Source: a virus
Lineage: Duplodnaviria; Heunggongvirae; Uroviricota; Caudoviricetes
Strand: one strand, 5' to 3'
IMG/VR virus record: IMGVR_UViG_2537561977_000030
Coordinates: 1-24,811 of that record
Length of the DNA: 24,811 nt
A program made the position numbers and the translations under genes. Numbering within the stretch: the stretch's first letter is position 1; every line of letters starts with the position of its first letter. Under the pieces are notes generated by a model, which saw nothing but the letters and a program-made list of their open reading frames with translations, was not told the origin of the DNA and ran no database searches. This document shows positions 7,554 through 24,811 of the stretch, one piece after another.

Positions 7554-7574
7554 GATATTAAAGGCGTTTAAGAA
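7554..7574 (-). promoter_or_regulatory. Conserved 21-bp motif, copy A (candidate activator-dependent late promoter)
   Basis: GATATTAAAGGCGTTTAAGAA on the plus strand is 19/21 identical to 13346-13366. On the minus strand it reads TTCTTAAACGCCTTTAATATC, containing a TAATAT -10-like hexamer with no good -35. Confidence 0.4.
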
Positions 7575-7577
7575 ATC

Positions 7578-8090
7578 TCAGTGCGAGTGATGATTAGAGT
7601 TCTGACCATCAGACAGCATACTACCTGTCGAGTGGGCATTACCGTTAATTTCAAGGTCGCCATTCACCGTGGTGGTGTCAGCAGTCAAATCAATGGTTTT
7701 CCCCTTCAGGCTGATACCCACTGCAACCTCGATCACCACATGCTCAATACCTCCTTTGACCGTCAGCGTATGGGTCGCGCGGTTATAACTGAACTCCGCG
7801 CCATCCGCGTATTTCGTGCCCCGGACGTTTTTATCACTGAACGGCGGTTTATCGACGTCTGAGTACACCGCGCCCAGAATGACACCATCCTCGCCGTTGG
7901 CATCGAGCAGCACCTCAACCTGCTCCCCCACGTCAGGGAGCCAGTAATCCTTGTTATCCTGGGTATTGCGCTGCAGCACGTTAAGCCAGTTTGTGCGCAG
8001 GTTATCGCATTCAGGCAGACGAACGCGGGCCTGAACCCTGTCGGCATCAACGGCACTGACCGTACCGACCTGACGGGTGACACCTGTCAT
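7578..8090 (-). CDS. Baseplate spike/assembly protein V (P2 gpV / Mu gp45-like)
   Basis: 170-aa ORF with V-family-like sequence; position between D-like and W-like genes. Confidence 0.7.
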   Translation of the reverse strand: MTGVTRQVGTVSAVDADRVQARVRLPECDNLRTNWLNVLQRNTQDNKDYWLPDVGEQVEVLLDANGEDGVILGAVYSDVDKPPFSDKNVRGTKYADGAEFSYNRATHTLTVKGGIEHVVIEVAVGISLKGKTIDLTADTTTVNGDLEINGNAHSTGSMLSDGQNSNHHSH

Positions 8091-8106
8091 TTTTTCTTCT
8101 CCTTAA

Positions 8107-9240
8107 TCACCGTCGATGTACTGCCATCCGGGTGATAAACCGTGAGTTTCTGAGTTTTTGTTTTTTCCCTCTTGTGACTGGCCCCCGTGCCACTTCCAGC
8201 TCGGTGGTGTAGCCGCTGTTACGCTCAAACGCATGGCGGGCAGTGGTTATGAGCCATGGCCCGGATAACTGTCCAAAGCCCACCAGTTCAATTTTGTTGC
8301 CTGCTGTCAGTTGAGGCGTTCCCGTCAGCGTCAGGGAGCCGTTCTGCTGATATTCGTTATGTCTGGCCAGTGCTGAATCCGCTTTAATCCGGGCACTGTC
8401 CGGGTCGCTGACGCGGCTGTTAACTTTAAGTGAGTCAGCGCTGGTAACCTTACCGCCTTTGAGCTTTTTGTCGCTTTCACGGGTACCACCATCAGCTTCG
8501 TAGACGATCAGTTTTTTACTGCTGCTTTTCTGGTGTTTTACCTTTGCAGATTTATAGACCCGGTTGATGGTGTCACGCAGGGAAAAGCGGGCCACATCCT
8601 GCGGTTTTAACTGCCTGACCGGCTCCTGACTGCGCAATGTGGCCAGATGAGAAAAAATCAACTGGTCACTGACCACTTTCACTGCATAACCATACCCGCT
8701 GGCCAGCCGGCGCAGAAAACCCACGTCGGTTTCAGCATACTGGGTCACCCGGTCGATTCTGATGGACTCAATGCTGCCCACCAGTTTCAGTCGGTGCTTT
8801 CTGGCAATCCGCCCCGCAACAGCTGCCAGCGTGGTGTTCTCAAAACCACGGCTGGATTTAGTCCGCAGAGCACTGTTAACCGAGGTGGCCACCCCACGGA
8901 TAGCGACAACGGACGCGGGCGAACTCACTTCGATCTCGTCTATTGAGAATGTACCGCAGGACAGCAGTTTCTCGCCCTGATAACCCATTTTCAGCGTCAG
9001 CGTGTCACCCTTGCCCGGATACCACTTATCCAGCCAGCGGCCATCGGTGTCGTCCAGCTCCACCTCAATGGTATCGGACTCATTTTTGATGTTATCGCTC
9101 CAGACCACACGGGTGACATAAGGCGCGATATCAGAGGTGATATTTTTCTGCAGATACCACAGCGTGAACACCGGCGTCAGCACCTCGCTGACGCCGGTTA
9201 ACGCTGATGTGGCTTGCGCAGTGCTGTTTATCTCAGCCAT
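8107..9240 (-). CDS. Tail/baseplate hub protein (P2 gpD / Mu gp44-like)
   Basis: 377 aa; C-terminal ...GNKIELVGFGQLSGPWLITTARHAFERNSGYTTELEV resembles the gpD family; position after X and U. Confidence 0.7.
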   Translation of the reverse strand: MAEINSTAQATSALTGVSEVLTPVFTLWYLQKNITSDIAPYVTRVVWSDNIKNESDTIEVELDDTDGRWLDKWYPGKGDTLTLKMGYQGEKLLSCGTFSIDEIEVSSPASVVAIRGVATSVNSALRTKSSRGFENTTLAAVAGRIARKHRLKLVGSIESIRIDRVTQYAETDVGFLRRLASGYGYAVKVVSDQLIFSHLATLRSQEPVRQLKPQDVARFSLRDTINRVYKSAKVKHQKSSSKKLIVYEADGGTRESDKKLKGGKVTSADSLKVNSRVSDPDSARIKADSALARHNEYQQNGSLTLTGTPQLTAGNKIELVGFGQLSGPWLITTARHAFERNSGYTTELEVARGPVTRGKKQKLRNSRFITRMAVHRR

Positions 9241-9443: not shown

Positions 9444-10324
9444 ACACTCCTCGTCAGTATTCTGGCGGCCATTGCACTTAATCCCGGAGACATGCGGTTG
9501 AATGCTGTGCCAGCGGCGTTAAGCTGCCCGGAAACGGTATCCAGAGCACCTGCAATATTTCTTTTGTCCACACCACTCAGCGCAGACTGCGCTTGCTGTA
9601 CATACGTGGCTGCCTCACTGGCTGTTCTGGCCAGACTGATGGCTTCGGGCATGGATTCAGAGAGTGCATTAAATGCCGGAACACTTTTCCCCAGAGCTCC
9701 GGATATATTACCCAGTCCGCTCATCAGTCCCGGCACACGGGTCAGTGCGACAACGGGGTTACCCTTCATTTTCTGCGCCACCCGAACAGCACTGATAGTG
9801 GTCTGGAGTACAGACTGCGCCTGTTTCGCACAGTTGACGCCGTTACGGACGAACTGCGCCACCCCGGAAGGCGATGGAACAGCACCAGATACGGCCCCGG
9901 CACCGGGAACCTGCCTGCGTATTGCCGGCGGTTGCAGAGGATTTTTCGGGTCACCGGTGTATTCCCGGAGAGACACGGTGGCACTGACAGCCAGCACGTT
10001 ACCGGTGCTGTCTGTCTGCTCACTGGTTGCGGTCACATCGGTAATCACGAACCAGCCGCGATAGTCACCGTTGCCGAAGACCAGTGCCAGTGCCTGATGG
10101 GCCTTCATGGCTGTTCGCACTCTCGCCAGCTCCACGTCGGGCACACAATAATGCTGATGGAAGACCAGGCTTATCTGGATTTCGTCCAGCCTGTCGCCGA
10201 CGAACTGCAGGCCGGGTTTACCCCCGATGCGGGCATGCTCCGCATAATCGACGCCGGACGTGGCCTCGAAGCCGTCCCAGTAGGTAATCAGCTCAAACTC
10301 AATATCACCCAGTACGGCAAACAT
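9440..10324 (-). CDS. Tail protein (P2 gpU-like / Mu N DNA-circulation N-terminal type)
   Basis: 294 aa; N-terminal FAVLGDIEFEL...RIGGKPGLQFVGDRLDEIQISL... resembles the gpU family. Start shares a base with the tape-measure stop. Confidence 0.55.
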   Translation of the reverse strand: MFAVLGDIEFELITYWDGFEATSGVDYAEHARIGGKPGLQFVGDRLDEIQISLVFHQHYCVPDVELARVRTAMKAHQALALVFGNGDYRGWFVITDVTATSEQTDSTGNVLAVSATVSLREYTGDPKNPLQPPAIRRQVPGAGAVSGAVPSPSGVAQFVRNGVNCAKQAQSVLQTTISAVRVAQKMKGNPVVALTRVPGLMSGLGNISGALGKSVPAFNALSESMPEAISLARTASEAATYVQQAQSALSGVDKRNIAGALDTVSGQLNAAGTAFNRMSPGLSAMAARILTRSV

Positions 10325-12801
10325 CAGCGGTACTCCTTACGTTGTTTCTGAGCCAGCAGACGCTCCAGCATTTTTTCCAGCTCATGCAGGCTCATATTCA
10401 GGGCTCCAGTCAGCCCGGCAGGCGCTGCGGTTTCCTTACCATTGAGGAAAAACTGAGGATTAAAGCTGACCTGGATACCGCCAGACGCTCCACCGCCAGT
10501 TGCAGTTGCGCCACGGCCTGAATATCCGGCAGCCATGATTTCCGGCGACGGGATACGGGGAACATCCGGTGTCATTTCAGCGGCCAGGCGCTGCCCGGCC
10601 AGTGCAGCAAGCGGAGTGGTTCGCTGCAGGCCAATGGCGGCACCCTGCGCGATATTGTCACCAAAGCCCATAAACACGCGACTCGGCGAATGGATGCCCA
10701 GCTTTTCGCTGAACCAGTCACTGATGCTGTCACCCATTCCGGTTACGCTGGTTTTGAGCGACTCCCATTTGTTTCTGATGCCATTTATCAGCCCGTCGAT
10801 AAGATGACCACCGAAGTCGGTGAACTTCGCCGGCAGATCAACGCCGAGATATTTCAGCGCAGCCGCAAAGGCTTTATAAAGCAGCCCCGCCGGAGACCAG
10901 TTAACCAGCAGTTTACCAGTTCCCGCGATGCCGCCGTTAAAGGCTTCCTGAATGTCAGCCCAGCGCTGTTTAAACCAGCTACTGACTGCGCCCCAGTTGT
11001 GGTAGATAAGGTAAGCTGCTGCCGCAACGGCGGTGATAACGAGACCGATGGGATTCATCATCAGCGCCCGGCCAATCCAGAGAACGGCGCGTGCAGCAAT
11101 CATAAAACCGCGAACGAGGCTGCCCGTCAGAACTTTGCTGAGTTTCAGTCCTCCGCGGGTCAGTCGGCTGAATCCAGTGACAAGCCAGCGTAATTTGCCA
11201 CCTTCTCCGAGTGCGGTAGTCAGTCGACGCCAGTTGGTCCGGAGTAAAACAGCAGTTTTCCAGACGTTCACAAAGGGGGAAATAAGAAGATTCAGCCCCA
11301 GTTTGAGGCCAATAGTCGCTATCTTAATCGCAAGGAGCGCACTGATGAGCTTAAAAGCCCCACTGACAAATTGCGGGTGAGTCGCCACCCAGTGTTTTGC
11401 CCCCTGAATGAGTGGGATCAACTCCTGTGCCAGAGAAATAAAAGAGGGGGCGAGCTGATCGCCCAGCGTAATAGCCAGATCGCGACTGCTGACCATAAGC
11501 GCTTTAGTGGCTTCAGAGGGAGATTTCAGCCGCTGATCGTAAGCACTGGCAAGCAAATCGTTATCCGCAGCCCTGAGGGCACCGGCACGAATCTCGCGGT
11601 ACCTGTCCATGTTGGCCAGCATCGGGCGGATAAACGCCATGACCTGCATATCCGCGAACATATCGCCCAGACCAAAGTTTTTTGCCAGAGCCTGAAGTGC
11701 CTCATCTCTTGCCGTATCATTTTTTATTTTCATGGCGGATTTGAACCCGGCCAGAGCTTCGGGGCTTTTTGTATTGAGGTAACGCTCTATAACACTCAAC
11801 ATCCCTTCAATCGGAGAGATCCCCGCAGCCTTATAACTCGCAATAGATCCCTGCAAATCAATACCCAGGTCAGCAAACTGTTTCTGAGTATCGCGGGCAA
11901 AAATTTTGGTAAGAAAGTTTTTAAAGTTATTGGCCGCTTCGTCGGTGGAGCCCGCACCGATTTTTGCTATCTGGAGACTGGCCCCGATTTCAGCAACAGC
12001 CTCTTTTCCACTGGCAACGCCCGCCATCATTGGGGCCAGGGACTGCATCCATTTGACCTGATCCGGAATTTCAAATGACCCCTGATCACCGGCATAAGCC
12101 ATAATATTCTGGACGGCACCAAAATCTCTGGCGGCACCTTTCAGGGAGTTTTGCCAGACAGCGGCCACTTTTGCCCAGTCCTGAGATGACGTGCGTGTTG
12201 CCGTTGCCGCGCGGGCAATATCCGGCATCAGAAAACCGATATCTGACAAGTTATCAATATTGTCGCTGATGAGCGAACCCACCGCCTCCTGCAGCTCATC
12301 CTGATACTGATTGTATTTAAGTGCCCAGCCTTTTATCTGTCCGGCAAGTGCATCCCGCGTTTTATTGTCATATTTTGCGGTGATCGACATATCAATCATT
12401 TTGTCCTGAAAAGACATGGACTGCTGAACGGCCGGGGAAACCGTATGATAAACAGTCTGTGTCATGCCATACGCTTCAAGTCCCTGACCATACAGCGCCA
12501 TGCGGTTAGCTTTCAGCGCATCACTGGTCGCTGATGCCGCTGACAGGCGGCGCTGCTGGCGCTCAATTTGCTCCATGGTGCGGCTTACCCGCAGCAGCTC
12601 GCTGTTGAGACGCTGCATCCGGGAAGAACCCAGTTGACCATAACGTTCTGTTGCACGGGTTAAAGCGTTCTGACGTTCCTGCAGGCGGCGTGAGGTATCG
12701 CTCAGGGAATCAAGCGCACGGCGGGTACCGCTCATTGCAGAACGGAATGTGCTGCCAATCATCCCGCCGATAACAACGCCGACTGAAAACTGTCCCGACA
12801 T
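10324..12801 (-). CDS. Tail tape measure protein
   Basis: 825-aa ORF with an alpha-helical, Ala/Gly-rich central region and hydrophobic segments, placed between chaperone and baseplate genes. Confidence 0.85.
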   Translation of the reverse strand: MSGQFSVGVVIGGMIGSTFRSAMSGTRRALDSLSDTSRRLQERQNALTRATERYGQLGSSRMQRLNSELLRVSRTMEQIERQQRRLSAASATSDALKANRMALYGQGLEAYGMTQTVYHTVSPAVQQSMSFQDKMIDMSITAKYDNKTRDALAGQIKGWALKYNQYQDELQEAVGSLISDNIDNLSDIGFLMPDIARAATATRTSSQDWAKVAAVWQNSLKGAARDFGAVQNIMAYAGDQGSFEIPDQVKWMQSLAPMMAGVASGKEAVAEIGASLQIAKIGAGSTDEAANNFKNFLTKIFARDTQKQFADLGIDLQGSIASYKAAGISPIEGMLSVIERYLNTKSPEALAGFKSAMKIKNDTARDEALQALAKNFGLGDMFADMQVMAFIRPMLANMDRYREIRAGALRAADNDLLASAYDQRLKSPSEATKALMVSSRDLAITLGDQLAPSFISLAQELIPLIQGAKHWVATHPQFVSGAFKLISALLAIKIATIGLKLGLNLLISPFVNVWKTAVLLRTNWRRLTTALGEGGKLRWLVTGFSRLTRGGLKLSKVLTGSLVRGFMIAARAVLWIGRALMMNPIGLVITAVAAAAYLIYHNWGAVSSWFKQRWADIQEAFNGGIAGTGKLLVNWSPAGLLYKAFAAALKYLGVDLPAKFTDFGGHLIDGLINGIRNKWESLKTSVTGMGDSISDWFSEKLGIHSPSRVFMGFGDNIAQGAAIGLQRTTPLAALAGQRLAAEMTPDVPRIPSPEIMAAGYSGRGATATGGGASGGIQVSFNPQFFLNGKETAAPAGLTGALNMSLHELEKMLERLLAQKQRKEYR

Positions 12802-13345: not shown

Positions 13346-13366
13346 GATATTAAAGGAGATTAAGAA
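13346..13366 (-). promoter_or_regulatory. Conserved 21-bp motif, copy B (candidate late promoter upstream of the chaperone gene)
   Basis: GATATTAAAGGAGATTAAGAA; on the minus strand it follows the hairpin at 13371-13384 and precedes the chaperone ATG by about 50 nt. Confidence 0.4.
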
Positions 13367-13663: not shown

Positions 13664-14185
13664 TCAGCCCCCGATATTGATACGGTAGTCAGTCAGCTGG
13701 TCAACGCCACCGACCCGGAAGATGTTGGCCAGATAGTCCAGTTGCAGCAGCTCTTCACCATCCAGTACCTGTCTGATATACGTGCAGGTGAAGCTACTGG
13801 AGAACTCGGCGTTCTCGTGCTGTTTGAACGTCCCCAGCGGGTTCTTCTTGAACATAATCGTCAGGAAGGTGACCAGCGGGATTTCGTCGATCAGCCCCTG
13901 CGAACTGTAGCGCTGGACGCTTGAGCGACACTGCAGCGCCAGCGACCTGTACGGGTTCGCGGCAGACAGCATCGCATCGCGGTAAAAGCTGTTCCATTTG
14001 ATTTCGCCTTCCAGTTTGTCAAAACCAGCCGGGAGTTCCACCTTACCCACCATCCCCAGTGCCTTGTGTTCCTGCATAATCATGGAGACATCGGGGAGTT
14101 TAACTTCCTCAGCCCGTCCCAGCAGGTTAGTACCATCCAGATAGATGTTGGCATTCGTGATTCGGTTTATCTCAATCTTTGACAT
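13664..14185 (-). CDS. Tail tube protein (Mu gpM / P2 FII-like)
   Basis: 173-aa ORF immediately after the sheath gene; start shares a base with the sheath stop. Confidence 0.8.
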   Translation of the reverse strand: MSKIEINRITNANIYLDGTNLLGRAEEVKLPDVSMIMQEHKALGMVGKVELPAGFDKLEGEIKWNSFYRDAMLSAANPYRSLALQCRSSVQRYSSQGLIDEIPLVTFLTIMFKKNPLGTFKQHENAEFSSSFTCTYIRQVLDGEELLQLDYLANIFRVGGVDQLTDYRINIGG

Positions 14186-15618
14186 CAGTTGCCCCCTTTC
14201 AGGGTTAACAGGTATTCCGAGGTGATCTCCGTCTCATACGTCAGCCGCTCCAGCGGTGGCGGCGGCGTGTATTTGTAGCTCAGCAACAGGTGACCGGCGG
14301 CCAGCTCCGTCTCCGGATTGCGGGCCGGATCAAACCAGCAACGGAAGCCCAGTACCGCACCATCACCAGTCATTTTGCGACCGTAGGCGTTGACCGACTC
14401 CGTCAGTGCATCAATCAGCGCCTGAGTAATCGGCATGTCGATGTACTGCTGGCTGAAGTAACGAATGGACTCGTTGATCACATCACCGGTGCGGCGAACG
14501 TTCTCAAAGTTACGCATATGGGTGACCGTTGGCCATGCTGCCGTCCGGTTACCCCACAGACGAAGGCCGCTGCCGTAACTGCTGAATACCGTGGTGATCC
14601 CCTGTTCGTTAAGCAGGTTCACCTCGCTCTGCGGATCGTCAATCATTGCCGACAGCTGGCGCTCCACGCCGGTGATCCCCAGAATTTCCTGATTGGAGGA
14701 TGACCACCAGTACCCTTTGTCCAGGTCGACTCTGGCACGCAGGCCCGCCGCACGCTGGCTCAGTGGCTCCAGACGCTCCGTGTTTGTCACCGGGTCATAT
14801 ACCTTCACATGCGGGTAGCACAGGCGGACACGGTCAGAGCTGGTATTGAAATTAATGGTGCCTTCCGGGCCACGTCCCGCCAGAGCCTGCGCAAAAGTGG
14901 TACCAACCGGCGCATCAATATAGGTTACTGCTCCCAGTTTCTCAGCCATGGCGATAAGCTCAACCGAGACGCTGTTCTGGGTGCAGAATACCGGCGCAAT
15001 CAGGATTTTGGCGAAGTAGCCAAACAGGTTAAAACTGTCGTTAAGCAGCTTCATGCCGGTACGGTTGCCCGCCGCGTTAACGGCACCGATGATATCAGCC
15101 GGGGTGACTCTGGTCGGATCAGCATAGTTATAGCTGGCCTTCACCGTTGCATCTGCAGCAATGCTTTTACCCAGGTTAGTAATCACCCCGGTCTGTGCAT
15201 CAAGCGAGTAGTCCTGACCTTCAACATAAGGCTGACCGTCGCTGTCCGGTTTCAGTACCAGCTGCGCGACCACCGGATTAGCCAGCCGGGCTCTGCCTGT
15301 CGCCTTGTCGAACGACACATTCTCACTGACCACAGCGGTTTTATGCACAGACGGATCGAGTACGTTAATGACCAGAACGGTGCCTGCACCATGGTCATAA
15401 ATCGCATCCAGCGCCTGCGGAATGGTAAAGCCGTTGAACTGGCTGCCAAATGCTGCAGCGTCTTTCTCAGACAGGCACTGTACCAGCGTATTGACATCCC
15501 CCATTGGTGCGGTACCAATCAGGCCAATAACGGCAGATTTCACCGTTTTAACCGGGCGGGCACCGTTTTCCACTTCAATGGTTTCGGGACCATGCAGATA
15601 GTTAGCTGACATGGGCAT
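14185..15618 (-). CDS. Contractile tail sheath protein (Mu gpL / P2 FI-like)
   Basis: 477-aa ORF with sheath-like sequence, upstream of the tube gene. Confidence 0.85.
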   Translation of the reverse strand: MPMSANYLHGPETIEVENGARPVKTVKSAVIGLIGTAPMGDVNTLVQCLSEKDAAAFGSQFNGFTIPQALDAIYDHGAGTVLVINVLDPSVHKTAVVSENVSFDKATGRARLANPVVAQLVLKPDSDGQPYVEGQDYSLDAQTGVITNLGKSIAADATVKASYNYADPTRVTPADIIGAVNAAGNRTGMKLLNDSFNLFGYFAKILIAPVFCTQNSVSVELIAMAEKLGAVTYIDAPVGTTFAQALAGRGPEGTINFNTSSDRVRLCYPHVKVYDPVTNTERLEPLSQRAAGLRARVDLDKGYWWSSSNQEILGITGVERQLSAMIDDPQSEVNLLNEQGITTVFSSYGSGLRLWGNRTAAWPTVTHMRNFENVRRTGDVINESIRYFSQQYIDMPITQALIDALTESVNAYGRKMTGDGAVLGFRCWFDPARNPETELAAGHLLLSYKYTPPPPLERLTYETEITSEYLLTLKGGN

Positions 15619-15856: not shown

Positions 15857-16317
15857 TCGCTTTCCTCATAGTTCACTTCGGTTAACAGCGGGCCGGACGG
15901 TAAATCGCTGTCTTCGATAAAGACGCTTTCAGTCGCGAAGTCGAGGGCGTATTGCCAAAGCCCCCTGACTTCACCGATAAACACCTCGCGGGTCAGCCAG
16001 ATACGGCGGCGGCAGCCGGGCGGAGTGTGGCCACCGAGAATGCGGCGGACAGCATCCAGGACATTAATCGCCCCTTTTTTACCGTTGAGCTGGCGGAAGA
16101 CCACCGTGACGCAGAGCTGGATAGTCTGAGGCTGGATCACCGCACCGGTATCATCCGGCCTGTCGAAACGCGATCCTGCATAGCTCAGCAGCAACGCCCC
16201 GACAGAATGATTGAGGCGATATTCGGACGGCTTTTCCGGGAAGTACTCAACCTGCAGCTGAGGCAGCTTCTCGCGTAACCGGGCCAGTACCGCATCAAGG
16301 ACGGGCAGAACATTCAT
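15853..16317 (-). CDS. Mu gp37-like protein (DUF1834-type)
   Basis: 154-aa ORF in the position of Mu gp37, overlapping neighbours. Confidence 0.55.
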   Translation of the reverse strand: MNVLPVLDAVLARLREKLPQLQVEYFPEKPSEYRLNHSVGALLLSYAGSRFDRPDDTGAVIQPQTIQLCVTVVFRQLNGKKGAINVLDAVRRILGGHTPPGCRRRIWLTREVFIGEVRGLWQYALDFATESVFIEDSDLPSGPLLTEVNYEESE

Positions 16318-17112: not shown

Positions 17113-17484
17113 TTATTTACTGATACCGGTGATGAGATACCCGGCATCGCCACCCACCACGGCGACTTTGTAGATATCGGTATAACGGCAGTACTTCACC
17201 TTGCCGCCGGCCCCGTCGTATTTGTCTGCAACAGGCATCCCCTTACGACGCAGGGTGTAGCCGAAGGACGGCTCGTTCTCGTCCGCGCTGTCCGCCCCGA
17301 CGGCACGCTCGGTGTCATATTCCACAAAGGCGGTTTTTCCGAAGGTCGGTACACGCACGCCTTCCTTGTCCGTCAGCACGACGGGGAAAATACGTTCGCC
17401 GATGAATGCAGCATTTTTATAGCCACGGGCGATACTGGTCAGTACCGGATCAACGACACGTTTACCTTTTAAGTAATCAGACAT
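17113..17484 (-). CDS. Hypothetical 123-aa head-region protein
   Basis: ORF between the protease/scaffold and the DUF2190-like gene; no family recognised. Confidence 0.45.
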   Translation of the reverse strand: MSDYLKGKRVVDPVLTSIARGYKNAAFIGERIFPVVLTDKEGVRVPTFGKTAFVEYDTERAVGADSADENEPSFGYTLRRKGMPVADKYDGAGGKVKYCRYTDIYKVAVVGGDAGYLITGISK

Positions 17485-18614: not shown

Positions 18615-18828
18615 TTTGCTGTCCCGCGTTATGTTGTCGGAGACAGTTTGTGAGAAATGCAGGCCCGGCGATTTTAATCTGCTTTAGAAAACATCAGGGG
18701 AGAAGGACAGGGAAAGCAATGCGGTGAACCGGAGGCGGTTATAAAACAGAGGCTGTAAAGCCTTTATAAAGGTAATACAGCCCCTCAGTTGCTGGCAATG
18801 ATAAATCACCCGCCTGAAGGGAGAAACC

Positions 18829-19289: not shown

Positions 19290-20111
19290 TTATCCTCTCA
19301 GTTCCTGTTGTGCCAGTGGCTGAAGCGTACCCTGATAGCGGGCAAGGTCGGGACGGTATGCTGCCCCCGGTGCATAAGACCAGCCGACGTCGGTGGTCAC
19401 CTTCGTGGTGCCGGTATTAAAGGTGGCCACGTTCCGCATTTCGCCGGTTTTCTCTGAGACCAGTTTCAGTTCATGGCCCATGGCAGAGCCGGAGCTGATA
19501 ACCTTCAGGCCACGGGCACGTACATCCGCCGCACTCAGGGCAATCACACTACAGCGGCAGCGCCAGCCGTTCGGCGGGTAAAATGCCTGCCAGAACGGGT
19601 CATCCCAGCGCAGCACCAGACCATGCAGCGCCAGATGGCTCCTGCGGGTATGGCTGTCGTTGATGCCGGTATACATCCAGTACGGCCTGTCGTCGACGTT
19701 TTCCATCTGTTCCGCCCAACGACCGGCGCTGTAGAGTACGGACATATTGGTGCGAAAGATGGTATCGAGCCGCCACGAACTGCCCTGCTGAATGGTGACC
19801 GGCTCACCCGTTACCGGGTCAGTCGTGTCACTCGGTCCCCACCATCCCCTGCGCTTCAGCGCCGGCTCCAGCTCCTGCCGGAACCAGCGATCGGTTTTTC
19901 CTTCATCGACAGCCTGCTGCAGTGTCCCACGAATATCTTCCAGGATATCCAGGCGGGTCACTTTAGCGACGGTAAAGGCGCGGGCATGGGCTTCCTGCCA
20001 CATTTCTTCCCAGTCCCAGGTAATCTGATACCCTTTGGACTTCAGGTAGCTGATTGCCCGCTTCGGGGGAAGCGTCATGCAGTACGCCAGTTCAGCCGTT
20101 GTCACGCTCAT
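19290..20111 (-). CDS. Head morphogenesis protein (Mu F / SPP1 gp7 family)
   Basis: F-family-like sequence. Likely ATG at 20111 with a GGGGG ribosome-binding site; the track start at 20138 is TTG. Confidence 0.75.
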   Translation of the reverse strand: MSVTTAELAYCMTLPPKRAISYLKSKGYQITWDWEEMWQEAHARAFTVAKVTRLDILEDIRGTLQQAVDEGKTDRWFRQELEPALKRRGWWGPSDTTDPVTGEPVTIQQGSSWRLDTIFRTNMSVLYSAGRWAEQMENVDDRPYWMYTGINDSHTRRSHLALHGLVLRWDDPFWQAFYPPNGWRCRCSVIALSAADVRARGLKVISSGSAMGHELKLVSEKTGEMRNVATFNTGTTKVTTDVGWSYAPGAAYRPDLARYQGTLQPLAQQELRG

Positions 20112-21108
20112 GCAGACGCCCCCAGATATTTGCCACAAAGAGAATGCGGGCCAGCCGTTCCTGCAGATCGTCCGTGTTCATCTGAGGGTAGAGCTCCGCC
20201 AGTTCGCCCAGCAGCTCAGACGGGTTAACCCCATTTTCGACCCGCTTAAACAGAGGTGCCAGGACGGGTTCCAGCGTGCCATTTAACGCGCCTCCGTTCA
20301 TCAGAATGTCCAGCGCGTCGTCAAGCTGCTGCTGAGCCTGAATATCGGCATCAATCGCCTCGGCAAATGACAGCGGCAACATGTTCTTCTCGCGTTCTGA
20401 CGGTGGTGTCTCGTCAATATCGCCGTCCTGCAGCTGGTACTCACGCTTAAAGTATTGCGGGGTCAGACGCAGACCCGCCCGGGTGAGTTTTTCGTCGCGG
20501 GTGGCACGGGTGTCATCAATGGCCTCCTGTTCCCACATGGCCCAGACCGGACACGGCACATCGCCGAAGTTCAGGGTGACCACCGTTCTGATGACCTGAT
20601 TCACTGCCGCCTGAATGATGTCCGCATCCGCATCGCGGATATCAGCCGTTACCTCCAGCCCGGCCTGTGCAGAGGCCTTGTTACTGTTCGCTTCCGTGGT
20701 CTGATTCTGACCGAGTAATGCAATGGAGATCTCACTGCGTGACAGCGTGATCAGCTCGCGGAATACCTCGCTGCTGTCCGCCTTGCCATCCGCGGCTTTG
20801 AGTTCGATGCTGCTGTCATCGGGGATGGCGGCCACCGCGTCCTCCACCATCTGCTCCATGGAGTCCAGCAGTTTTTCAATCTCTGCATCATTTGCACCCC
20901 TCGGGTGCTTACCGATCACCCACGGGGAGCCAAACTTTTCGGCAAAGCGGAGCCAGAATTTCATCCCGCCTTTCTTGAAGGCGACCGGCCAGAAGCACAT
21001 GGACAGATCCGGAAAACCGTAAGGATTGTCATAGGATGCATCCTGTGCCGGCACCACGAATTTTGACGGTGACAACAGCTCACCCTCCACACCCGCATCA
21101 CGTGCCCG
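20092..21108 (-). pseudogene. Portal protein (Mu gp29 / DUF935-type), N-terminally truncated remnant
   Basis: About 335 codons where DUF935 portals run about 500. An in-frame stop lies immediately upstream at 21109-21111, and there is no credible start or ribosome-binding site. Confidence 0.65.
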
Positions 21109-21145: not shown

Positions 21146-21418
21146 ATGATTACCCCACAGGAAGCACGACAGCGCACCCGAACCCTTGTTGAACACTATG
21201 TCAACGAGTGTGAATACCGCGACCTCACCGATGTGAAGCACGTCCTGACGGCGCTAATCAGCATGGCCGCTCAGGCCATTGTGGCGACCAACGGAAAGGC
21301 GGCTGCCCTGCAGGTACTGGTGAACACACTCACCCACACGGCAGAGCATGAGGTGCCGTACCGGATGGAAACCACTGCAGAAGGCGGCCTGCACATCACC
21401 GTCAGCCGGAAGCACTGA
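21146..21418 (+). CDS. Hypothetical 90-aa protein
   Basis: ATG preceded by GGGAGG; first gene of a plus-strand operon. Confidence 0.55.
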   Translation: MITPQEARQRTRTLVEHYVNECEYRDLTDVKHVLTALISMAAQAIVATNGKAAALQVLVNTLTHTAEHEVPYRMETTAEGGLHITVSRKH

Positions 21419-21738: not shown

Positions 21739-21955
21739 ATGGCTGACATACTCAGGGAAATCACCGCATGGACACTGATTCTTACTGGCCTGGCGACATG
21801 CCTCAGTACGGGGGGCAGCCCTGGCTGCCCTGCTGATGCACATAACAACACAGTGGTTATGGGAAAAGCTTAAAGCAGCATACAGCCTGAAAGAGCTGTC
21901 CGACGCTGTCCGGGCATGGAAACGGCAGAAAAATACCGGAGATACTGAACAATGA
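21739..21955 (+). pseudogene. Small membrane-protein gene apparently frameshifted at a G6 run
   Basis: ATG at 21739 with a GGGAGG ribosome-binding site reads MADILREITAWTLILTGLA... The downstream frame, which ends in a TGA overlapping the next gene's ATG (ATGA), is reached by removing one G from 21810-21815. Confidence 0.35.
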
Positions 21956-23067: not shown

Positions 23068-23509
23068 ACAACGTCTTATCCAGCTCATTCATATTGCCCG
23101 TAATGAACTGGGTATGGATGAAGACACCTACCGCCAGATGTTACAGGGGCTGACCGGTAAAGCCTCAACCAAAGGAATGGATACCACACAACTAAACTGC
23201 GTGCTGGAATCCATGAAAAGGAAAGGCTTTCGCGTTAAGCCTGCCGGAAAAGCCAGCTCCGGTTTACCGCTGGATAACCATCCGCAGTCCAGGAAAATCC
23301 GTGCGCTATGGCTTGAAATGGCTGCTGCCGGCATTGTTCGTGACCGTTCAGAAAATGCATTAGCGCGGTGGATCAAGCGGGAAACGGGCATCAGCGCCCT
23401 GCGCTGGCTCAATACTGAACAGGCAAGCAGTGTTATTGAGAAACTGAAGAAGTGGCAGCACAGAGCTGCGGGAGTAAAACATGAGCGACCTGAATCAGTT
23501 TCGAAGTAA
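23057..23509 (+). CDS. gemA: GemA-like protein (Mu gp16 family, DUF1018)
   Basis: MMTKQRLIQLIHIARNELGMDEDTYRQMLQGLTGKAS...MKRKGF...SRKIRALWLEMAAAGIVRDRSENALARWIKRETGISALRWL matches the gp16 family pattern; AAAGGAG before the ATG. Confidence 0.75.
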   Translation: MMTKQRLIQLIHIARNELGMDEDTYRQMLQGLTGKASTKGMDTTQLNCVLESMKRKGFRVKPAGKASSGLPLDNHPQSRKIRALWLEMAAAGIVRDRSENALARWIKRETGISALRWLNTEQASSVIEKLKKWQHRAAGVKHERPESVSK

Positions 23510-23867
23510 AGGGCCGGAACTCCTGGTGGAGCTGGCACAGCATACCTCTGAGACCGTTCGCGAGATTATTGATATTGAGCCCGAAGTTGCCGACCAGATT
23601 GGTCAGGCCGTCGCGAACCGCATGATGCAGGTCTGGGGCGGGCAAAACGTTTATTTTCCTATGGGGATGAGATGGAAGATAAGCCAGCGTGACCGTGAAA
23701 TCTATGAGGCGTTTAACGGACGTAACCACCACGAACTGTCCCGCAGATTCAGGGTTTCAGTTCCCTGGATTTACAACCTGGTGAAGCGCGTAAGAAAGGA
23801 AGAAATCAGCCGGTTGCAGGGGCAGTTATTCGAAGACGATGATGAACCGGATGACAGCCGGGATTAA
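23481..23867 (+). CDS. mor: Mor/C-family transcriptional activator (Mu middle operon regulator-like)
   Basis: 128 aa; C-terminal GGQNVYFPMGMRWKISQRDREIYEAFNGRNHHELSRRFRVSVPWIYNLVKRVRK matches the Mor/C helix-turn-helix region; directly follows the gemA-like gene, as in Mu. Confidence 0.8.
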   Translation: MSDLNQFRSKGPELLVELAQHTSETVREIIDIEPEVADQIGQAVANRMMQVWGGQNVYFPMGMRWKISQRDREIYEAFNGRNHHELSRRFRVSVPWIYNLVKRVRKEEISRLQGQLFEDDDEPDDSRD

Positions 23868-23931
23868 TCAAAAGCGAGGTGATAATGCGCTATAAAACCC
23901 CCAACAGCGCCCCCCCTGAAGAAGGCAGACC

Positions 23932-24123
23932 ATGCAGATATGGCGATGGAAATTATCCGGCATTTTTTTTGACGGTCTGACTTCTGCTGAGGCGAGATAT
24001 GTTCTCCGGGAATGCGACAGGCTGATTGACAACTCGCGCCTGCATATCGGGCCTGATGAAAATTGTGTTTTGTATTACGGGAAAGTTTTACGTAACCCAC
24101 CACCACCGCCACCAAAGTGTTAA
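23932..24123 (+). CDS. Hypothetical 63-aa ORF ending in a proline run
   Basis: ORF only; region contains C7 and T8 homopolymers and a second short ORF from 23886 in another frame. Confidence 0.25.
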   Translation: MQIWRWKLSGIFFDGLTSAEARYVLRECDRLIDNSRLHIGPDENCVLYYGKVLRNPPPPPPKC

Positions 24124-24153
24124 CGAACGTCAATAAATTCCCGGTTTATGAAA

Positions 24154-24184
24154 AGCGCAATGGATAACCTGTTGCGCTTTTTTT
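24154..24184 (+). terminator. Rho-independent terminator
   Basis: Stem AGCGCAA...TTGCGC with an 11-nt loop, followed by a T7 run. Confidence 0.65.
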
Positions 24185-24217
24185 ATTCTGGCAGAAAAAC
24201 ATATCACCGGAGGAAAT

Positions 24218-24811
24218 ATGTTTGATGCATCCTTGCTGAATCTGCCATGGGCAACGCTGGTGACGCTCACCAGTGGTTATATCGGCTATTTTATTGCGAA
24301 CGTGGGGCTGAAGAACCATCACAAACCCATTGAGGTGACGTTTTCGACGCTGATTTTTGGTTTGCTGTCAATGATGGTTTACCAGGCTGTTATGTGGGCA
24401 GGTCTGAATTCGTGGCTGGCGACACCTCCAACACTTCTTTGCGCTTTTGCATACGCTGCATTATGGAGAAAATATGGGCGTAAATGGATGTACAGATTCC
24501 TCAGAAATAAGGATATATCATGGTCTGATGATACCCCCTCTGCCTGGATGCGTATGTTTGATCAACATGGATACTATATCAGCGAGGCGTATGTCTATCT
24601 GAAGAATGGTACTGTGCTGCTTTCTGAAAATCCGGGGAAATTTGAAGGCCAGGCCAGCGGTTCTTTTGTGTTAGGAGTGGAAAAAGACATAGTGATGTAT
24701 GTCACTCATGAAAAAAACCGGGGCGCGATGAATGGATTGAAAAAGATGTTGAAAGTAAAAGCTGGGGAGCGATGGCAACCTATATCCCTGCAGATCAGAT
24801 TGCCATGGTGA
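24218..24811 (+). CDS. Hypothetical membrane protein (197 aa; N-terminal transmembrane helices plus soluble C-terminal domain)
   Basis: GGAGGA ribosome-binding site before the ATG; hydrophobic N-terminus; stop is the last codon of the window. Confidence 0.6.
   Translation: MFDASLLNLPWATLVTLTSGYIGYFIANVGLKNHHKPIEVTFSTLIFGLLSMMVYQAVMWAGLNSWLATPPTLLCAFAYAALWRKYGRKWMYRFLRNKDISWSDDTPSAWMRMFDQHGYYISEAYVYLKNGTVLLSENPGKFEGQASGSFVLGVEKDIVMYVTHEKNRGAMNGLKKMLKVKAGERWQPISLQIRLPW

Follow-up and report, generated by a model that had tools for sequence, protein, structure and literature searches.

The stretch of DNA analysed here (IMG/VR record IMGVR_UViG_2537561977_000030, positions 1–24,811), which we call the window at its full length of 24,811 nucleotides, is a BcepMu-like transposable prophage of Escherichia coli and comes from the draft assembly of strain LT-68. 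Its last gene, which we call X, is read in the window as an ATG open reading frame (ORF) of 197 residues at 24218–24811 on the plus strand. A Shine–Dalgarno sequence, GGAGG, can be read directly on the same strand at 24208–24212, 5 nucleotides before the ATG, and X has its own ribosome-binding site, as an earlier model-made description of the window (the original prediction) had proposed. The strong terminator proposed upstream of X is also present: an intrinsic-terminator-like hairpin on the plus strand at 24150–24182, with a 14-bp stem and a 5-nucleotide loop, is followed by a T-run to 24186. The minimum free energy of this hairpin is −17.3 kcal/mol against a mean of −6.8 for dinucleotide shuffles (z = −4.75), and none of 200 shuffles folds equally well. 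A hairpin with a T-run is found 34–45 nucleotides 5′ of X in six Mu-like loci, and a weaker hairpin about 50 nucleotides 5′ of X in three further ones. The hairpin sequence varies by phage type (that of the type represented by L002, the intact relative in E. coli 2014C-3075, is different) while its position is kept, which supports a conserved insulator behind the early operon.

The gene mor (23481–23867, plus strand; Pfam PF08765, E = 5.2e-41) encodes a transcription activator of the Mor/C family and is the last core gene of the early arm; near-identical E. coli records annotate it as a Mor family protein. X does lie downstream of mor, as predicted, but not next to it: a small ORF at 23885–24123 (plus strand), annotated in E. 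coli A20 as a protein of 78 residues (WP_001610543.1), separates the two. In the window this small ORF is broken by two homopolymer indels, C7 at 23910–23916 (C6 in A20) and T8 at 23963–23970 (T7 in A20). It has no match in Pfam, PHROG or PADLOC (PADLOC-DB 2.0 at E ≤ 1), and the L002-type cassette does not contain it. Small ORFs upstream of X were considered as its common partner and rejected, as those in A20 (78 residues), L018 (67 residues) and L004 (89 residues) are mutually non-homologous.

The length of 197 residues does not reflect the intact gene. The last 1.4 kb of the window is 99.6% identical to nine complete E. coli genomes and has 1411 instead of 1412 bases. A homopolymer at 24711–24717 (plus strand) is A7 in the window and A8 in A20, to which it was aligned, and in other genomes. 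With A8, X encodes 214 residues and its stop codon lies 50 nucleotides past the window end; the shorter protein, with its stop at the final base of the window, arises because the A-run is one nucleotide shorter. The window reading of X (24218–24811) thus covers the first ~92% of the 214-residue gene with a −1 frameshift, and is out of frame from about residue 165. The conserved C-terminal segment WGA.ATYIPADQIARV.IRR, in which G184, I195 and R201 are invariant among relatives and T188 nearly so, is missing from the window ORF and is encoded in the A8 frame only. Only a single contig, of E. coli LT-68, carries the exact 197-residue sequence (EFZ56260.1, annotated ‘putative membrane protein’), and the four commonest listed 214-residue forms are found on about 830 contigs. 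Judged from these alignments, the window copy of X is damaged and incomplete, and the 197-residue ‘putative membrane protein’ of LT-68 is a frameshifted form of the 214-residue protein. The original prediction was right that an ORF is present and was misled as to its length by the frameshift.

It could be asked whether the prophage is a remnant in decay and the window copy of X simply a dead pseudogene, with nothing functional encoded here. The frameshift does remove the conserved C-terminal strands, about 12–13 kb of the prophage is missing from the portal N-terminus through an early gene (L002 37162–37356), and gin, gpD, the major head gene and hyp37946 are split as well. However, the three indels that separate the window from A20 between 22600 and 24811 are all single-base homopolymer changes (C7/C6, T8/T7 and A7/A8), the usual error signature of pyrosequencing and nanopore reads, the source is a draft assembly, and the region is otherwise 99.6% identical to intact copies. 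Such homopolymer-only indels are the pattern of homopolymer-prone sequencing, and an assembly error would look the same as a true pseudogene; we consider the pseudogene possible, if rather unlikely.

The family of X, thought at first not to be recognizable by eye, can be assigned with profile searches. X matches the phrog_12870 hidden Markov model (‘unknown function’) over its full length, with E = 6.9e-92 for the A20 allele (residues 1–205 of 214) and E = 6.3e-134 for the L002 allele. Pfam DUF6338 (PF19865) scores 16.3 bits with the intact homologue and 12.7 bits with the window ORF against a gathering cut-off of 26.5 bits, and is matched at E ≤ 0.01 by 26 of 53 relatives (best 1.4e-6). As X falls below the cut-off, it belongs to a sister branch of DUF6338, as a distant relative and not a curated member. 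An exhaustive profile search for X gave 527 clusters at 50% identity, nearly all of 200–215 residues; a profile scan of genome contigs with a narrow alignment gave nine X loci. No fused domains were found in the family, and the longer members carry no extra Pfam domain and have extensions that resemble miscalled starts. No sequence relative of X has a solved structure; the best PDB match, an ATP synthase c-subunit, has an E value of 0.24 and is not significant. A search against NCBIfam gave only noise, and a tblastn survey of phage genomes gave a single, uninformative match, at the end of Synechococcus phage Ssp-JY41.

An AlphaFold (AF2) model of the X monomer, built from the 53 sequences, has a mean pLDDT (predicted local distance difference test) of 86.5. 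It places three helices at residues 11–28, 37–60 and 65–97 (24248–24508, plus strand; predicted membrane helices, also from hydropathy), followed by a linker, ISWSDDTPSAW (residues 100–110; 24515–24547, plus strand), and a β-domain at residues 120–203 of the intact protein. In the window the coding region of the β-domain (24575–24811, plus strand) is out of frame after 24717 and clipped by the window end. The modelled domain has an N-terminal helix and a strongly bent five-stranded antiparallel sheet and is superposable on Sm proteins, which are the features of the Sm/LSm fold, and Foldseek agrees; there is no Pfam LSM or Hfq sequence match to X or its relatives. Lys and Arg residues are clustered in loop 1 and behind helix 3, from which an N-out/C-in topology is predicted. 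X is modelled as a 214-residue inner-membrane protein with three helices and a cytoplasmic Sm/LSm-like β-domain. The N-terminal helices and C-terminal domain of about 100 residues that had been proposed from the sequence are visible in both the model and the hydropathy profile, and the structure and topology prediction that had been recommended as a check adds the number of helices (three), the predicted orientation and the predicted Sm-like fold.

Conservation is not highest in the folded domain. By per-segment entropy, the N-terminal tail and helix 1 are the most conserved part of X: G20, Y21, Y24 and G30 are invariant among the 53 sequences and A27 nearly so, with G20, Y24, A27 and G30 on one helical face. 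This is more conservation than a passive anchor would need. In the linker, Ser101, Ser103, Asp104, Ser108, Ala109 and Trp110 are invariant or near-invariant across the same sequences. Three E. coli alleles of X are 83–89% identical over the N-terminal 116 residues and 49–60% identical in the C-terminal domain, and pairwise dN/dS (nonsynonymous to synonymous substitution rate) values of 0.17–0.21 show that X is under purifying selection.

The gross plan of three helices, predicted N-out/C-in, and then a β-domain with an Sm fold is also that of MscS. X might accordingly be a miniature MscS-like channel or another membrane homeostasis protein, carried as lysogenic-conversion cargo that benefits the host rather than acting against phages. 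Alignment of the X profile with E. coli MscS (a sequence entered by hand) using hhalign gave a probability of 0.2%, there is no match to Pfam MS_channel, and the neighbours of X are prophage, defence and toxin–antitoxin genes rather than osmotic-stress genes. We regard this as the most improbable of the explanations considered.

X was described originally as a stand-alone gene. This does not hold, as its relatives carry a conserved convergent partner, which we call Y, just past the point where the window ends. Y is an ORF of 46–58 residues directly 3′ of X on the opposite strand in 13 loci, with its stop codon −3 to +8 nucleotides from that of X (27 nucleotides in L018). With two further loci found from Y, the convergent pair is present in at least 15 loci overall, and the pairing is new here. 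X and Y are the two halves of what, in intact elements, is a mobile cassette. On the minus strand, Y occupies 7457–7606 in L001 and 40836–40997 in L002 (49–53 residues), beyond the equivalent of the window end. It corresponds to phrog_15726 and is annotated in 2014C-3075 (RefSeq WP_001571575.1) and unannotated in A20; the gene of about 50 residues adjoining X is often left out of annotations. The Y protein is hydrophilic and of low complexity, with a (D/E)(Y/F)(S/T)E.PK motif in enterobacteria and a GVQGNHTPTT...PPSPKKK motif in alphaproteobacteria. Substitutions between Y copies fall mostly at the third codon position (one example being 7, 8 and 30 at the first, second and third positions), and pN is much lower than pS (nonsynonymous and synonymous differences, respectively); both observations indicate that Y is translated and, like X, is under purifying selection. 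A sigma-70-like promoter for Y (TTGAAA-18-TAGAAT) was noted in L002 and discarded: it is not present in A20, and the match counts do not exceed those of shuffles.

A search seeded with Y returned 21 clusters, and both of the new ones that were looked up (2/2) carry X, convergent and abutting. One is a metagenomic integrase island (L033, 2621–4724) in which Y comes last in a unit that includes a ThsB-type TIR gene; in the other, also a metagenomic island (L034, 3036–5372), Y ends a unit that includes an AbiTii gene. X is convergent to Y in each. Likewise, Y is the last gene of a CI–Sel1–Y unit in L018.

TIR proteins make nucleotide signals, and one locus has X–Y directly behind a ThsB-type TIR gene. 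X could therefore be read as a membrane-tethered binder of RNA or nucleotides, an Hfq/LSm-like ring at the inner membrane that would sequester or sense an RNA or nucleotide signal and would form no pore. Effectors of the Cap15 type, which join a small β-barrel sensor to membrane helices (PMC10419184), provide a parallel. The sequence gives no LSM or Hfq match, however, and Sm1/Sm2 residues for RNA binding were not identified; near most X loci there is no enzyme that produces a signal, and it is helix 1, not the Sm-like domain, that is the most conserved part of X. This reading seems to us very unlikely, if slightly less so than a channel of the MscS kind.

The distribution of X shows it to be an accessory gene. 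L002 carries gin and the tail, head, terminase and lysis genes on one strand, and the repressor, a ner-like gene, the transposase, a MuB-like ATPase, gam, gp16 and mor on the other, followed by X and the prophage end. The gp16–mor region is found in 640 of 5426 complete E. coli genomes, and the conserved N-terminal part of X in 132 genomes against these 640. In seven genera of the Enterobacterales X closes the early arm, behind mor. Most related E. coli prophages lack X and stop about 160 nucleotides past mor, as seen in two that were sampled (those of strains R11 and 503440) and in phage PhiKM. These X-less types part from the X-bearing type within the 3′ end of mor and rejoin it only in the last ~46 nucleotides of the phage end. 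X is thus optional cargo in the slot between mor and the prophage end, with the terminator hairpin insulating the cassette from the early operon; together with its occurrence in unrelated prophages and islands, this supports the proposal that X is an independent, accessory unit.

The same data speak to lysis. The original prediction named superinfection exclusion, abortive infection and lysis control as possible roles, and considered that it would be overturned if X proved to be a conserved lysis-cassette component, such as a holin or spanin, of intact Mu-like phages. In L002 the holin, an SLT transglycosylase and their neighbours lie at 27110–29151, on the arm opposite X, and in the intact prophage nothing follows X 3′ except the prophage end and one small, convergent ORF, so not the holin or endolysin genes that had been suggested as something to look for. 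We therefore rejected X as a holin or lysis-cassette component on its position and on its dispensability, given the X-less PhiKM, R11 and 503440. In L018, another BcepMu-like prophage, X lies between a holin and the CI repressor; it is near the holin but divergent from it, with another ORF between. Elsewhere X is a lone opposite-strand gene in HK97-like prophages; it lies beside SocA, Rha, HicB and HigB/ParE genes in Bartonella prophages, near a DUF4411 and Peptidase_M78 pair in one context, and in integrase islands, often on the strand opposite to its neighbours. Several of these contexts have no mor. Such neighbourhoods favour defence or toxin–antitoxin-like roles over lysis control, and X has the prophage-borne, phage-dispensable character of the superinfection exclusion and abortive infection class.

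A role in lytic growth has to be weighed all the same, because of where X sits. In Mu, gene C follows mor, and X occupies the same place. X might then be an accessory lytic gene, middle or late, that is activated by Mor: the hairpin would stop early transcripts, Mor would then drive a promoter with its start in or next to the hairpin, and X made late would tune lysis timing in the manner of a holin or antiholin, or exclude superinfecting phage while lytic growth proceeds. The dyad TTAA-N6-TTAA is relevant to this. L002 has three exact copies of it (0.27 expected) and the window two (0.15 expected); every exact copy is upstream of a late operon, and a fourth copy, with one mismatch, is upstream of the protease gene. 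The boxes are at 7558–7571, 13350–13363 and 18674–18687 in the window, at minus-strand promoters, and at 10290–10303, 16104–16117 and 29206–29219 in L002. The promoters of the tail, baseplate and protease genes have an nAnACT hexamer 38–44 nucleotides from the start of the box (in Plys the hexamer is GATGCT), and the centre of the dyad is thereby placed near −42.5. The Mor site of Mu has inverted repeats centred at −43.5, replacing the −35 element, and a −10 hexamer is present (PMC4390567); the agreement makes TTAA-N6-TTAA a candidate Mor-binding box that would define four late promoters, as in Mu. Upstream of X, L009 and L010 have exact boxes with the late-promoter geometry (hexamers CAACAT and CAATAT), and the predicted start is within the 5′ arm of the hairpin.

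The window itself does not follow this pattern. Its candidate Mor box 5′ of X, TTAACGAACGTCAA at 24120–24133 (plus strand), is a one-mismatch copy of the dyad, as in A20 and L002, and lies too close to any −10-like hexamer, the distance to the nearest one being about 8 nucleotides shorter than the late promoters show; one-mismatch boxes are also expected by chance. No sigma-70-type promoter was found 5′ of X. A Mor-type promoter for the window copy, and control of X by Mor in general, are kept as leads, not results. The helical part of X weakly resembles three-helix holins, among them those of the LydA type (Foldseek against BFVD, E = 7e-3 to 0.1), but these resemblances are not significant and have a high r.m.s.d. 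(root-mean-square deviation). Moreover, most close relatives have no X–Y and so do not need it for the lytic cycle, the other arm has a complete lysis cassette, and X is found in contexts without mor. In our estimation it is unlikely that X is such a lytic gene.

We instead favour, tentatively and while granting it somewhat less than an even chance, the view that X–Y is a protective module of the lysogen or an addiction module, in which X would be the effector and Y would restrain it. What inclines us to a module of this type is the plan of membrane helices plus a β-domain, which recalls effectors such as Cap15 that damage the inner membrane as oligomers, the tendency of Sm folds, which typically form rings, the defence and toxin–antitoxin neighbours, and the tail-to-tail layout. 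X would oligomerize through the Sm-like domain and the conserved packing face of helix 1, and the oligomer would perturb the inner membrane, making X toxic to the cell. The tail-to-tail layout implies either that the X and Y transcripts overlap or that the Y protein acts on X, and X might be kept in check by the Y protein or by antisense transcription of Y into X. The module could be of the exclusion, the abortive-infection or the toxin–antitoxin-like kind, and might have an anti-phage effect. A type II toxin–antitoxin pair in the strict sense was rejected, since such pairs are co-directional operons and X–Y is convergent with abutting stops. On our analysis the convergent layout lowers the probability that X–Y is type II, and would not lower the probability of a toxin-like action of X under a small regulator.

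Several observations weigh against a protective or addictive role. Convergent orientation is atypical of protein toxin–antitoxin pairs, and the association with defence genes amounts to about a dozen contexts with no statistical enrichment. The defence-protein hidden Markov models of PADLOC-DB 2.0 give no match to X at E ≤ 1. The position of X behind mor is fixed in the Enterobacterales, and with the exact Mor-box-like dyads of two loci this would fit expression in lytic growth rather than in the lysogen. Some X loci (HK97-like prophages, L014 and L022) have no Y, and the covariation between Y and the C-terminal domain of X is weak (partial r of 0.33) and confounded by linkage. The helices of X are only moderately hydrophobic (19-residue Kyte–Doolittle maxima of 1.09, 1.54 and 0.91), so its membrane insertion is predicted with some uncertainty. 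Finally, we found no published work on the X family and nothing relevant on anti-phage membrane proteins with an Sm-like domain, and one paper that mentions DUF6338, in passing.

A more specific and bolder version of the module is doubtful, though a little less so than the lytic role. In it, X–Y would be an undescribed two-gene anti-phage or addiction system in which an Sm-like ring gates a pore made of three-helix bundles; the small, disordered Y protein (or an antisense transcript) would keep the pore closed, and infection or loss of the element would halt the supply of Y and open it. If true, X would be the first Sm-fold membrane effector outside the MscS family, and swappable cargo of Mu-like, lambdoid and HK97-like prophages and of defence islands. 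Should the more general protective or addictive role hold, a compact and widespread cassette (~527 clusters at 50% identity) would join the prophage-borne protection and addiction modules, and proteins of the DUF6338 type would gain a first functional handle. The fusion of an Sm-like domain to membrane helices and the convergent, stop-to-stop partner gene are unusual features. For genome annotation, the analysis shows the right end of BcepMu-like enterobacterial prophages to be a cargo slot, and the candidate Mor box offers a testable way into the late transcription of these phages.

As to the element as a whole, the L002 transposase shares 68% identity with the BcepMu enzyme and 98% with the transposase of Escherichia phage PhiKM, a phage classified in Bcepmuvirus. 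Compared with intact relatives, the gap of ~12–13 kb in the window takes in the portal N-terminus, the terminase, the lysis genes, the repressor, the transposase, the MuB-like ATPase, gam and a small early gene. The portal gene of the window (20095–21108, minus strand) has only 338 of 498 residues and abuts an early gene at 21146. The window prophage is defective, or the draft is misassembled. Five genes are split into two overlapping frames relative to L002 or A20, namely those at 4–572 (gin), 8090–9240 (gpD, late control D), 17116–17484 (major head), 21739–21952 (a small early gene) and 23885–24123 (the 78-residue ORF); each of the three indels that were examined alters the length of a homopolymer, and this suggests sequencing errors in the LT-68 draft. 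The tape measure protein (10330–12801) is 62% identical to that of L002, while the flanking tail genes are 97–100% identical, and this points to mosaic exchange inside the tail module.

The right ends of six prophages (L001, L002, L027, L028, L031 and L032) lie at differing chromosomal sites (dpiA, slyB, a truncated kefF, yphD, ycaL and ybaV), as expected for integration by transposition, and have in common the end motif TTCATTTATCTCA.GTC...TCA. Two phage records in this group call for care. In PhiKM (L029, PQ738613.1) a coding sequence at 20200–20544, annotated ‘Fe2+ ABC transporter permease protein 2’, is past the conserved phage end motif (…TCATTTATCTCAAGTCTAATCA) and has the appearance of host sequence or of a join in the assembly rather than of a phage gene. 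Klebsiella phage KP12 (L030, OM835952.1, a partial record) has a 109-residue ORF at 14038–14367 in the slot behind a Mor-like gene, and this ORF matches the N-terminus of Mu gp27 (PF11985). The taxonomy line of KP12 reads Vequintavirinae and its genes are BcepMu-like; the record is possibly chimeric or mislabelled.

In comparison with known systems, X is closest to its own family: it has the same length and one-domain plan as phrog_12870 and DUF6338, neither of which has a known function. It differs from Sm, LSm and Hfq proteins in having no sequence-level match to them, in a long insertion between its strands and in the tethering of its domain to three membrane helices. The likeness to MscS is one of architecture only (three helices, a predicted N-out/C-in topology and an Sm-fold β-domain), as homology to the MS_channel family was looked for and not found. 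With class I holins X has three helices and the weak Foldseek likeness described above in common; unlike them, it lies outside the lysis cassette, is twice the usual holin size and has a folded cytoplasmic domain, and most sibling phages have no X yet keep their holin.

Among defence systems, prophage membrane proteins for exclusion or abortive infection include λ RexB, P22 SieA and SieB, HK97 gp15 and T4 Imm. Like these, X is a (predicted) membrane protein that prophages carry and can do without, and it occupies a cargo slot, either at the end of the genome or next to the immunity region; we found no sequence or fold relationship between them and X, and they have no counterpart of the small convergent partner. 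Cap15-type effectors of the cyclic-oligonucleotide-based antiphage signalling system (CBASS) have N-terminal membrane helices and a small β-barrel sensor, oligomerize and damage the membrane (PMC10419184). X has a similar arrangement of N-terminal helices and a compact C-terminal β-domain and also occurs beside defence genes, but its predicted fold is a five-stranded Sm-like sheet and not a β-barrel, its neighbourhood has no cyclase, it has no PADLOC match, and it is paired with a small convergent gene.

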